Below are positions 36,716 through 62,992 of a DNA stretch of 64,000 nucleotides, in pieces. The stretch covers positions 141,741-205,740 of IMG/VR virus record IMGVR_UViG_3300017565_000001; one strand, 5' to 3'. This stretch comes from a virus (taxonomy: Duplodnaviria > Heunggongvirae > Uroviricota > Caudoviricetes). Below the pieces are notes generated by a model. It was given only the letters and a program-made list of their open reading frames with translations, did no database searches and was not told the origin of the DNA. Positions within the stretch are counted from its first letter, which is position 1. Each line of letters starts with the position of its first letter. The position numbers were made by a program, and so were the translations under genes.

Positions 36716-38956
36716 ATGAGCAATTCAAATTTCGATCCCGTTACCTTCTCAGCCATCAAGAGAAACAAACCTCTTGTTGGCGAAGCACTCCTGGTACCAA
36801 ACTCGTTTTCATCGCCTGACTATGCTGACACTGGATCAACTGTTGATCCAGATCAATTCCCCGAATTGGCCAAAGTGATCTCTCCTGATTTCTCTGGTGA
36901 AACCTGGGACATGATTGCCCTTCCCTCTGTTACTAATGGTTTGGCCCAATTGGGCAATCCACAATTGGCCTATAAGTGGGGCGGCCAATATTATCTGATC
37001 ACATCGAATGGTTACTTCTTCAAGTCAACTGACGGCACAATCGGTACATTGACTGAAGTCAAGACATATCCATTGCGCGGCCAAGTGCATGTTGACTCGT
37101 CGTTTAGTTCTGGTCAATTGGCTGTTCTTATTGGTAGTACCGTCACATTGATGGATTACAATGGTGTGTTCATTCGTTCAGGTAATGTTTCGACTGGTAC
37201 CCCTAACCGTATCCGTTATTACAACAACCAGGTATGGGCATTTATTGGGCAATATTTTTGCCAAAGCGCACCAGTATCGTCTATGAGCTTCTCATCCATC
37301 AACATCGGTGTGACGTCTGGTAACGGTGTTATGACTGACGTTGCTTGGAACGGAACATATTGGTATCTGTCGTTCCAAAGTCCAGCTGGTGGAACTGCTA
37401 CTGTCTATCGTAGTTCGAATGGTCAGGGTGGTTCAGCAAACTGGACTGCTCAAGGTGCTGGTACGACTAGCATCGCTTCTTTGGCTGTTGGTGGCACAAA
37501 CGTCATCGCAATTCCTGGTGGTACTGGTTCGACCGTTTATCGTACAACTGGTACATCATGGACAACCGTATCACTCACTGTGAGTGGATTCACTGATCGT
37601 ACGAACACCAAAACGACCGCTCTGAACAACGGCCATTGCATTATTTCGTCATACAACTATCGCATTCCACAATGTGTTTACTTTGATGGCACCACGTTTA
37701 CTGACATGACATCAGCGATCAATGGTTCGTCAACATTCTTTGGTGGATATGGTACAGCGTATGCCGCTCTTGACACTGTGATTTTTGCTGGTTCTAGCAC
37801 AACAAACAGTGGCACGATCGCAGCATCGCCAGGCCAAACCTTTGTTTGTGCATCAGATACGAAGTTTGTTTCAAACTCTGGTGTTTATCCATTGGGTATG
37901 CAATCAACAAGCTATTCCGCCCCAATTCAAATTGGTAGCGGGTTGATGGCTATGATTGCTAAAACTCCAGGTGTTGAAAACGGTGGCGTTACCAAGGCCT
38001 CACCAACATTGAGTGGCCTGCGTTCAACAGATGGCAAAAACTGGACACCATTCACGATTCAGGGTCCTAACGGTGGTACTACGCAAATCACATGGTTGAA
38101 CTTTACTGCCAATGACAACATGTTCATCTGTGGTGGCCCTGTTGTCGGTACCTCTTCATATTACGGTACAACCATGTGGATTGGCACGTCAACTGATTTG
38201 GTCAATTGGACTTGGAATTCGTCCACAACACCAACAGTCAACGCCGCGACTGGTGCGATCATCGAAGGTGTTGGTACACAAAACATTGTTTGGCGTCCTG
38301 TTGGCGGCACCACAATCTTTTATTCGACCAATCGTGGTTCAACATGGACTTCGGTAGCCCTAGCTGCTAGTGACTGGATCTGGTATGACCGCCAGAATAA
38401 AGTCCTGCACTCGTTGGCGCAAACTGGCACGACTAACATGTATTCCACTGACGGCATTACCTGGACGGCCAGCCCAACTGGCGGCGCCTCGAACCTGCAG
38501 ACTTTCAAGGCGGTAGCCACTGGTCAGAAGGTTGCTATCTTTGGTGGTAGTACCACAACGCCGTTTACTGGTTCCAAGATGCTCATGAGTACTGACGGTG
38601 GTATCAATTACGGAGTGTATGATTTGCCAGCAACAGTAGCTGTTGGTAATGCTTGGGCCGCAAATGGTATCATTGGTGTGGGCAACGTTGCCAACAACAC
38701 CTACTATTACACCAAGGACGGCACCAATTGGACCACAGTCACCTACGCTGGTTTGACTGCGTCACAGTTGTATATCGGCTCAACGGGCATCAAGACCTAT
38801 TACGATACTTCAACTAGTCTTGATGGTAAGACCACATTCATCGCTGGAAACTTGGCTAATACGACTGGTTTCCTGATGGTGTCAAAGGGTGACTTGTTCA
38901 TTCCCGCCGTTACTGAAGTGCCAAGTGGCCTCAAGTACGTCATTAGAGCAAGTTAA
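36716..38956 (+). CDS. tail fibre / beta-propeller (BNR/WD40-like repeat) protein
   Basis: repeated S.DG.NWT / STDGITWT Asp-box motifs, Thr/Gly/Ser-rich. Confidence 0.75.
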   Translation: MSNSNFDPVTFSAIKRNKPLVGEALLVPNSFSSPDYADTGSTVDPDQFPELAKVISPDFSGETWDMIALPSVTNGLAQLGNPQLAYKWGGQYYLITSNGYFFKSTDGTIGTLTEVKTYPLRGQVHVDSSFSSGQLAVLIGSTVTLMDYNGVFIRSGNVSTGTPNRIRYYNNQVWAFIGQYFCQSAPVSSMSFSSINIGVTSGNGVMTDVAWNGTYWYLSFQSPAGGTATVYRSSNGQGGSANWTAQGAGTTSIASLAVGGTNVIAIPGGTGSTVYRTTGTSWTTVSLTVSGFTDRTNTKTTALNNGHCIISSYNYRIPQCVYFDGTTFTDMTSAINGSSTFFGGYGTAYAALDTVIFAGSSTTNSGTIAASPGQTFVCASDTKFVSNSGVYPLGMQSTSYSAPIQIGSGLMAMIAKTPGVENGGVTKASPTLSGLRSTDGKNWTPFTIQGPNGGTTQITWLNFTANDNMFICGGPVVGTSSYYGTTMWIGTSTDLVNWTWNSSTTPTVNAATGAIIEGVGTQNIVWRPVGGTTIFYSTNRGSTWTSVALAASDWIWYDRQNKVLHSLAQTGTTNMYSTDGITWTASPTGGASNLQTFKAVATGQKVAIFGGSTTTPFTGSKMLMSTDGGINYGVYDLPATVAVGNAWAANGIIGVGNVANNTYYYTKDGTNWTTVTYAGLTASQLYIGSTGIKTYYDTSTSLDGKTTFIAGNLANTTGFLMVSKGDLFIPAVTEVPSGLKYVIRAS

Positions 38957-39117
38957 GTAGAGTGCAAAGGGGGTGGCAAATATTTGCCACCTTCTTCTTG
39001 ACTGGCTGGAACGCAGATACTATAGTTACGGCATGGTGCTGCAGATGCAGCGACAGAAAACAGTTGCTTGACGTACTAAATGAGTTTAGACTTGTTTGAT
39101 AAATAAAGCACTGCAAC

Positions 39118-39406: not shown

Positions 39407-39425
39407 ATATCATATAGAAGGTTTT

Positions 39426-39480
39426 GGGATACCTACAGCAAATCACATTCATCTGCTAATATGAAACCAATGTGTATCCC
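39426..39480 (+). ncRNA. ACAGCAA-scaffold small RNA with GCT anticodon-like loop
   Basis: GGGATAC/GTATCCC closing stem; TTCAT-CTGCTAAT-ATGAA. Confidence 0.55.
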
Positions 39481-39489
39481 GTCAATTTT

Positions 39490-39551
39490 AGGATGTTTGC
39501 AGCAAATCCAATACATTTGACTTTTAATCAAACCCGTAAAAAGACATCCTG
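39490..39551 (+). ncRNA. GCAGCAA-scaffold small RNA with TTT anticodon stem-loop
   Basis: AGGATGT/ACATCCT closing stem; TTTGA-CTTTTAA-TCAAA. Confidence 0.6.
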
Positions 39552-39660: not shown

Positions 39661-39836
39661 TTAAAGCTGAAATGACCTGTTTTCATAAAGCAGGTTGGAT
39701 TCTGCGTCTGATGGTTCTGTCAACAGGGACCGAATCATTCGTCGAGTTGTCTTCAGCTATCTGGTAGGCTACCCGGTCGTAAGGGCGGGCAAGGTGGGTT
39801 CGACCCCCGCAGGCAGCGTACAGAATCCAGCTTTAA
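39661..39836 (+). ncRNA. structured RNA with internal T-arm
   Basis: TTAAAGCTG/CAGCTTTAA and GGATTCTG/CAGAATCC enclosing stems; GTGGG-TTCGACC-CCCGC. Confidence 0.5.
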
Positions 39837-40163
39837 GTGAATTTAAGAATACCTGGTGAACGGGTTGTGTGTAGTCCCTTCGAAAGAAGACGGCTTTTAT
39901 ATTCATAGCGGGCGTTTTCAGTTGAGAACGTGTGATGATTTTGGCAAGAAAACATCACGGCATAAGCGTACAGAGTGGCCCAAACATATCGTACGCAGTT
40001 GAAGTAACCATGCGGGTTGTCTACCTTTTGGATAATCCACACCTCCAAGGATATATTAACTTTGAGTAGGCTGGGACTTTCAATTCTGTGAGTCAGGCTG
40101 AGGCGAAGTGAACGTATTCTTTGGTTATGATTCAGCCGTTGGTTGGCGTAACAACCACCCTAT

Positions 40164-40357
40164 ACGGGGATAGCTCAGAGGTAGTAGGTATGGGACTGAC
40201 TCGCGCAGTTAGTTACCGCCCGCCAATAAACTCATAGGTTCAGGCAGTCGTGGAGTTGATATCACCACAGTGGCTGGCGCTGAAATGAAAGCTTTGTTGG
40301 AAGAGCGTCGGCTTGATAAGCCGAAGGTCGGTGGTTCGAATCCATCTCCCCGTACCA
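40164..40357 (+). tRNA. tRNA-Ile(GAT) with ~118-nt insertion in the D-loop
   Basis: ACGGGGA TA GCTCAG [insert] TTGGAA GAGC, TCGGC-TTGATAA-GCCGA, T-arm, TCCCCGT A CCA. Confidence 0.8.
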
Positions 40358-40623
40358 TTGCCCTATAATCAAGCATCACTTGTGGTATTTGATTATGCGG
40401 CAAAACCCCTTGGCAGGGGTCCAGTACGTGTGGTAGGTAGAGTTTAAAACGTTATCAGACTTATGTGAGTGATATTGGCTTTTTAGCTGATACACAGGGC
40501 ATTGGGGAAACTTAATGTCAAAAGCGGCCCGGATAAAATATCGAGCACCCTCGAGGCAAGGTCTGTAACAGAAAATATACCGAGACAAAGGATATGATCG
40601 CGGGAGTAGCTACCCATTGATGA

Positions 40624-40929
40624 ATGCCCTCATCCACTGTTGCAAACTGGGCTTTAGTTTTGCCGCAACCTTATAACCACCTTATGTGCGACTGTACCAT
40701 TTGCTCACGTCATAAACGAATGAACGAAATCATGTCAAAGCTAGACCCAGAGGACCGGGAATGGCTGCAAACAATGATGGGATATTTGCTTGACATTGAA
40801 GCAGATGTGGAGTATCATAAGGCTATACTTAATGGCGCTTTGCCAAGCTCAGAAGAAATTTTGAAGAAAGCTCTTCATAAGCTTTACGCTATACGAGCAA
40901 ACAACGATCCTGTGGTCCGAGAGGCTTAG
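40624..40929 (+). CDS. hypothetical protein (likely start MCDCTIC at ~40684)
   Basis: ORF track; 3' end overlaps tRNA-Cys. Confidence 0.5.
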   Translation: MPSSTVANWALVLPQPYNHLMCDCTICSRHKRMNEIMSKLDPEDREWLQTMMGYLLDIEADVEYHKAILNGALPSSEEILKKALHKLYAIRANNDPVVREA

Positions 40930-62916: not shown

Positions 62917-62992
62917 ACCTGGTTAGCTCAGCGGTAGCAGCGGCGTCTTGATAAGGCGTAGGTCATTGGTTCGATCCCAATACCAGGTACCA
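62917..62992 (+). tRNA. tRNA-Ile(GAT)
   Basis: cloverleaf, CCA. Confidence 0.9.

Follow-up and report, generated by a model that had tools for sequence, protein, structure and literature searches.

The window, a stretch of 64,000 nt, comes from the complete genome of a jumbo phage, 424,529 bp in length (G000), in which 56 tRNAs are called. The major capsid protein is of the T4 type and shares 82% sequence identity with that of Sinorhizobium phage Phosso and 69% with that of Agrobacterium phage Atu_ph07. A gene shaped like tRNA-Ile(GAU), 194 nt in length and with an encoded CCA, lies at positions 40164–40357 (+ strand) in a small cluster of tRNA and non-coding RNA (ncRNA) genes, between the gene for a 746-residue protein and tRNA-Cys. 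It carries an extra domain in the D-loop and is termed here the Ile-like gene. Sigma-70-like sites, consensus matches only, occur 5′ of it at 38998 and 39541. The 746-residue protein (36716–38956, + strand) matches nothing in Pfam or PHROG; a synthetase or a nuclease was considered and rejected, the predicted fold being of the BNR/β-propeller type. Its gene is missing from the syntenic position in two relatives, L326 and L329.

Directly after the Ile-like gene there is a conserved structured ncRNA (40358–40660, + strand), which has no Rfam match, displays two-sided changes in 25 of 95 predicted pairs among five phages and persists where the Ile-like gene has been lost by deletion. Just 5′ lies another conserved, Rfam-negative structured RNA (39930–40160, + strand; two-sided changes in 15 of 70 pairs) and, upstream of that, a 175-nt enclosed RNA with an inner T-arm (39661–39836, + strand) that is 79–88% conserved in three orthologues. 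Elsewhere G000 has a tRNA with a CUA (amber) anticodon (G000:53129–53203), as does phage Phosso, and a two-piece tmRNA with a tag of alphaproteobacterial type (G000:41648–42040). The genome encodes RtcB. It gives no match to the EndA profile PF01974, which in a control matched four archaea, or to PF05731, the profile for Ro60/TROVE.

Architecture and conservation of the Ile-like gene

The 5′ acceptor strand, U8-A9 and the 5′ strand of the D-stem occupy 40164–40176 (+ strand, as for all segments that follow). The acceptor stem is paired at seven of seven positions (40164–40170 with 40347–40353) and the D-stem comprises 4 bp (40173–40176 with its 3′ strand at 40303–40306). The anticodon arm (40308–40324) has a perfect stem of 5 bp, GAU at 40315–40317 and an invariant A37-A38. 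After a variable loop of 5 nt, the T-arm, 3′ acceptor strand, A73 and CCA are found at 40330–40357; the T-arm is canonical and ACCA is encoded in the gene. The marks of a canonical tRNA-Ile(GAU), namely cloverleaf stems, T-loop, A73, CCA and GAU-A37-A38, are present. The earlier note had described a tRNA-Ile(GAT) with an insertion in the D-loop and this is confirmed, with every cloverleaf element in place around a D-loop of 126 nt. The D-loop measures 126–129 nt across all five orthologues, the window copy included, and a canonical loop of 7–11 nt is absent in each.

The D-loop opens with a single-stranded segment (40177–40186) that holds A14, G15, a variable N16 and an invariant GG at 40180–40181, unpaired in the structure model. 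Two hairpins follow. H1 (40187–40220) has 13 pairs and four substitutions with pairing kept in all; its invariant loop (40202–40206) consists of one nucleotide and the 4-nt palindrome GCGC adjoining the 3′ side of the stem. H2 (40223–40300) has 25 pairs, four with two-sided changes, and is closed at its base by an invariant CC (40223–40224) paired with a 3′ GG (40299–40300). The loop of H2 (40254–40264), also invariant, is made up of AGU and an 8-nt palindrome (40257–40264) that adjoins the 3′ side of the stem. Of three hairpins claimed previously the H1 stem and the H2 tip hold, but CGCCA/TGGCG breaks in orthologues.

A covariance model of the whole gene (R1) scores 225 bits here, and the Rfam match is limited to the 3′ part (44.8 bits). 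ARAGORN makes no call on such genes or, with the intron option, miscalls them as Ser. Standard tRNA finders therefore miss these genes and inventories of phage tRNAs omit them. The sequence is identical in one ENA and one Logan assembly, which excludes an assembly artefact. A strict scan of the 424-kb genome for long acceptor matches returned a single further well-formed case, in which the insert sits in the anticodon arm; this and the retention of the gene in four orthologues exclude a chance origin. Folded alone the insert is no better than shuffles (z = +0.2), single-sequence z-scores being uninformative here, and the structural evidence is comparative.

Four syntenic relatives carrying the gene (L210, L211, L326 and L331) were reached through neighbouring proteins, using Logan and ENA look-ups only. 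The earlier note had named a lack of conservation as a ground for doubt; the insert is kept in all four. Its identity to the window copy is 83–88% in the three relatives measured and that of the exons 93–95%, compared with 49–67% for the upstream region and 63–78% for the next open reading frame. Over the cloverleaf and both hairpins all 294 of 294 cells are paired (59 pairs, five orthologues), a level reached by none of 500 shuffles, with the caution that the five sequences are related and that the alignment counted here also contributed to the structure model. Fourteen pairs vary and all stay paired; 11 of them lie in the insert and five show two-sided changes. The A1-U72 pair of the window is replaced, in compensatory fashion, by G1-C72 in all four orthologues. 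Since the insert is conserved and pairing is kept at all of its variable pairs, the gene is, judged by this comparison, under selection and not a relic.

Decay of a pseudogene after inactivation by a small palindromic mobile element is accordingly a highly improbable explanation. The gene is redundant, has lost U33 in the relatives and is deleted in one of them, and CPR bacteria have partial tRNA duplicates with two-hairpin inserts, evidence that such elements exist. Against this, the maintenance of pairing at every changed paired position largely refutes decay, the exons are conserved to the degree given above whereas an intact tRNA-Met nearby drops to 67% identity in one relative, and the insert-only covariance model (R2) detects no second copy in G000, so that the insert is single-copy.

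The gene is nevertheless accessory, as it was lost in the more distant relative L329. There, recombination between two tRNA genes took out about 700 nt that included the Ile-like gene. A chimeric tRNA-Met(CAT) at L329:7779–7853 (− strand) carries the 3′ end of the Ile-like gene. Exact-pattern scans of IMG/VR for the gene gave no match, blastn against GenBank phages gave matches only to ordinary tRNA 3′ halves, and in the closest capsid relatives (G019–G022 and Phosso) neither the scanned regions nor a search with model R2 gave a copy. An intact Ile(GAT) gene had been pointed out at 62917; it is present but is not the sole copy, the second being at G000:206745. With two intact genes in G000 a third Ile(GAU) decoder is unnecessary.

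Position 33, junctions and the fate of the insert

Is the insert removed from the transcript, or does it stay? Excision of 40179–40296 (118 nt), as proposed earlier, leaves a 76-nt tRNA that ARAGORN calls Ile(GAT). The junction had been described as ambiguous and it is, since an alternative 5′ junction gives a 75-nt tRNA-Ile(GAT). One reading is therefore of an intron with no ribozyme, in which a nuclease cuts on both sides of the insert and RtcB joins the exons to a tRNA-Ile of 75–76 nt; the excised RNA may have a role of its own, like the ‘enigmatic’ tRNA introns of Lak phages. The exons of the window re-join to a textbook tRNA and are better conserved than the insert, RtcB is encoded in G000 and, in G002, lies about 5.5 kb from a gene of similar architecture (L235, described below), and many tRNAs interrupted in the anticodon loop occur in related jumbo phages.

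Position 33 (40314) speaks for a different outcome. U33 makes the anticodon U-turn. The window copy has U33, whereas all four orthologues have A. Among 1,349 tRNAs called by ARAGORN in the fetched DNA, U33 occurs in 1,293 and A33 in four, with the caveat that ARAGORN favours U33. With A33 in four of the five orthologues, splicing would for most of the family yield a tRNA that decodes poorly. The A33 copies still keep GAU, A37, A38, the stems and CCA. Counting against retention of the insert, splicing of the window copy, with its U33, would produce a perfect tRNA.

The junctions do not point to a known splicing route. There are 26–27 junction choices, giving about 17 different plausible D-loops, and at none was a splice signal conserved across the orthologues found. 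No strict bulge-helix-bulge, with the full helix and both flanking helices, is formed at any junction in any orthologue, in a genome with no EndA match. Ends of the group I type (exon U, intron G) are available at 2–4 of the 26–27 choices per orthologue, which is the chance level, and the group II ends GUGYG...AY are absent from the insert. The insert had been judged too short for a group I or group II intron and this is borne out: it has 118 nt, no such core and no Rfam intron match at E ≤ 10. Hammerhead and hairpin-ribozyme cores were rejected by eye. GT..AG ends, present in some orthologues and not in the window, were set aside as meaningless in a phage. The junction of the earlier note needs the 3′ GG to serve as G18-G19, and that GG pairs invariantly in the base of H2. 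No allele free of the insert was seen among the five orthologues or in the exact scans of IMG/VR. RtcB is common in jumbo phages, where it serves tRNA repair, and the complete 41-kb phage that carries L146, another gene with a long D-loop, has no RtcB.

Of three options put forward earlier, a fused ncRNA domain is favoured by these data and a novel spliced intron is disfavoured, on the grounds of A33, the lack of a conserved junction and the lack of a core. Comparison of the orthologous sequences suggests that the insert is probably a retained domain rather than a removable intron, and we regard splicing as unlikely. If it were spliced, this would represent a bacterial system with a D-loop intron spliced by proteins, and we found no paper describing one.

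Palindromic loops and a wider class of long D-loops

Both hairpin loops of the window insert are self-complementary and invariant in the five orthologues. The loops never vary within this family and so provide no covariation of their own. Neither they nor the wider class to which we now turn figured in the earlier note, which had suggested a search for the same insert in other tRNAs. Model R2 detected it neither at a second site in G000 nor among the distant members, but pattern scans uncovered other long D-loops.

At least seven further phage genes combine a tRNA shape and a paired acceptor stem with a long D-loop. They were identified in a generic scan of fetched loci followed by two pattern scans of IMG/VR, and the number is a lower bound; the D-stems were sampled only as GCUC/GAGC. 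Most pattern-scan matches proved to be ordinary tRNAs in tandem and were removed. Scans of metagenomes and GTDB added only partial duplicates in CPR bacteria and L146's own contig. The genes are L023 (anticodon UCU, D-loop of 126 nt), L146 (UGU, 120 nt, C37), L151 (UAA (Leu) on a short-arm body, 131 nt), L235 (UCU, 132 nt, A33), L246 (UAU, 135 nt, A33), L260 (AAG, 122 nt, C33) and L315 (CAU, 128 nt, C37). Among the matches listed, D-loops in all eight lineages fall between 120 and 135 nt, from scans that admitted 90–150 nt, a range centred on the first two examples. An abnormal anticodon loop or a mismatched identity is seen in six of the seven further genes among the matches listed. L023 and L235 may be related. 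No neighbouring gene or protein partner is shared across the members. Distant members occur in unrelated contexts, one standing alone behind a promoter, and their inserts are not detectably homologous to that of the window with model R2, so that the class may have arisen by convergence.

Two palindromic loops, each 4 nt or longer, are present in the predicted folds of six of the eight lineages among the matches listed. Shuffles reach this at a rate of 6–11%, with about 8% expected for each lineage, and other structured windows taken from G000 at 8.6%. With the window left out the excess has P of about 7 × 10⁻⁵, in a test that was framed partly after the data were seen; of four members found after the framing two passed (P about 0.04), and a stricter version was passed by one of three members tested. 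The tip of H2 is built as GG-A(G/U)U-palindrome-CC and extended by two further pairs. Across the 3.25 Mb of DNA fetched, this full geometry is found only in the window's family, in L146 and in one unrelated place, which carries a different palindrome; L246 has it with the two extra pairs missing. The H2-tip palindromes of the window family, L146 and L246 all differ, hence the recurring trait is self-complementarity and not sequence. In OLE and GOLLD such loops have exchanged one palindrome for another during evolution, and these swaps served as evidence for kissing loops between molecules, which cryo-EM shows (10.1101/2024.12.08.627333). By analogy, the different palindromes across these lineages suggest a kissing-loop signature as in GOLLD and OLE. 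In cofolding, the homodimer gain exceeds that of shuffles in three of eight class members; for the window insert it does not (9/60).

The H2 loop lends itself to another interpretation, in which the retained domain binds a protein or other tRNAs rather than itself and may capture Ile tRNAs in the manner of a T-box. The sequence UAUCA in this loop (40260–40264) is complementary over 5 bp to positions 33–37 of a normal tRNA-Ile(GAU) (compare 40314–40318), in the way of a T-box specifier loop, the loop is invariant, and A33 would weaken self-capture. However, the H2 loops of distant members do not match their own anticodons while self-complementarity recurs, and Rfam gives no T-box match. We consider such binding to other partners quite unlikely.

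It is improbable, too, that the tRNA-shaped unit is a domain, or a signal for processing, within a larger ornate RNA of roughly 39661–40660 whose assembly the fold would serve, comparable to the tRNAs embedded in GOLLD or to tRNA-Other of B. cereus. Both flanks are conserved, covarying, Rfam-negative structured RNAs, and L329 lost the upstream RNAs and the Ile-like gene as one block, yet that phage keeps the downstream RNA, the distant members stand in the unrelated contexts noted above and the encoded CCA suggests release as a separate RNA.

The reading that we prefer, to which we assign a probability of about one half, is that a domain able to pair with copies of itself stays on a tRNA scaffold that does not decode and that may serve as a decoy. 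Its parts carry different weight: the domain is quite likely to be retained in the RNA and, if it is, self-pairing into dimers or rings is fairly likely. According to this model a tRNA-shaped ncRNA of approximately 194 nt would be transcribed in the tRNA operon and, with intact acceptor, T-arm and CCA, trimmed like a tRNA. Isoleucyl-tRNA synthetase (IleRS) may charge it, given that GAU, A37, A38 and A73 are kept. In the D-loop, the domain would bud out at the variable 20/21 region. The 5′ GG (40180–40181) would act as G18-G19 in the elbow and the 3′ GG would close H2; as the former is free and the latter is held in H2, we infer that the unspliced RNA can form the L-shape. A33 and the bulky elbow would exclude the molecule from decoding. 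The palindromic loops of two molecules would kiss, and the resulting dimers or small rings would present several tRNA-like bodies. Speculatively, the most likely role is that of a multivalent decoy or sponge which occupies tRNA-recognizing host proteins, such as anticodon nucleases or synthetases.

On the basis of sequence the gene is a real, selected and undescribed variant of phage tRNA-like RNA. Only tentatively might one go further and propose a distinct, undescribed class, in which full tRNA bodies, deprived of decoding by A33 or comparable changes, are joined through the two kissing loops of a D-loop domain of constrained size into defined RNA-only dimers or rings that act as multivalent tRNA decoys against host anti-tRNA defence. 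Retention of the insert would mean that the elbow of a tRNA can bear a 120-nt domain and that phages convert whole tRNAs into self-assembling, non-decoding RNAs, a 194-nt molecule then linking tRNA arrays, anti-tRNA defence and the GOLLD/ROOL nanocages. The literature yielded no D-loop insert in a phage tRNA, with thin coverage of subscription papers.

Known systems and other unusual RNAs

GOLLD and ROOL are phage ncRNAs found near tRNA arrays and, together with OLE, self-assemble through kissing loops (10.1101/2024.12.08.627333; PMC12990946). These are RNAs of 550–830 nt with Rfam folds of their own, whereas the Ile-like gene is a 194-nt tRNA body plus a two-hairpin domain, at which the GOLLD, ROOL and OLE covariance models give no match. 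For the Ile-like RNA, multimerization is a prediction. D-loop-mediated dimerization has reportedly been seen with a mutant mitochondrial tRNA, a precedent that we do not use as support.

The retention of a tRNA fold for a non-translational role is shared with tRNA-Other of B. cereus (PMC3399842) and with YrlA; unlike both, the Ile-like gene keeps the whole cloverleaf, anticodon and CCA and bears its extra domain in the D-loop. Membership of the YrlA group finds no support, as the gene is not permuted, has no Rfam match to it and resides in a genome with no TROVE gene. YrlA itself is permuted, has no anticodon arm and depends on Ro60. By analogy the Ile-like RNA would work most like GOLLD and ROOL and the non-decoding tRNA look-alikes, and it belongs to none of these groups.

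Among interrupted tRNA genes, the ‘enigmatic’ tRNA introns of Lak megaphages resemble the present case in that a tRNA gene of a large phage contains a conserved short insert, and in the parts of that report available to us splicing is not demonstrated (Devoto et al. 2019, PMC6784885). The portion of the preprint text consulted mentions no D-loop insert, and one Lak insert is tRNA-shaped (PMC6784885). The Ile-like gene is unlike introns of the Lak type in that its insert is located in the D-loop and its tRNA body lacks U33 in most orthologues. Nor does the insert itself qualify as a tRNA or mini-tRNA, having no inner T-arm, no T-loop and no terminal CCA. Archaeal D-loop introns, processed through a bulge-helix-bulge and EndA, are alike in the D-arm position of the insert but differ in that here there is no strict bulge-helix-bulge and no EndA, and the phage is of bacterial type. 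The group I introns of bacterial and phage tRNA genes, likewise interruptions of a tRNA gene, are at least 200 nt long with a catalytic core and lie in the anticodon loop, in contrast to a coreless insert of 118 nt. The related phage L197 has apparent group I introns in tRNA genes, as assessed by eye.

Interrupted tRNA genes are found in related jumbo phages at L129:8507, L192:10253 and 9290, L121:1670, and L197:8964 and 13453; the inserts at these sites are short ones in the anticodon loop (40–95 nt) and two group I-like introns. Partial 5′ tRNA copies with two-hairpin inserts in the D-loop, found in CPR bacteria and in a single viral contig (L174–L182 and L156), lie just before the intact gene. 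A tRNA-shaped gene at L154:3216–3319, identical in three contigs, has a D-loop hairpin of about 33 nt, and its anticodon is replaced by a loop of 4 nt. Scaffolds of tRNA in which the anticodon arm is replaced by a hairpin and a CAGCAA motif occur at G000:209545–209675 and L130:14517 and are similar between these two related jumbo phages. Repeated elements in which a (T/G)CAGCAA motif follows a helix are present in the window (39418–39551), elsewhere in G000 (207032, 209609 and 232562–232955) and in L127, and some enclose parts of tRNAs. One such element in G022 encloses a circularly permuted tRNA-like unit reminiscent of Y RNA, although a TROVE gene is missing from G000.
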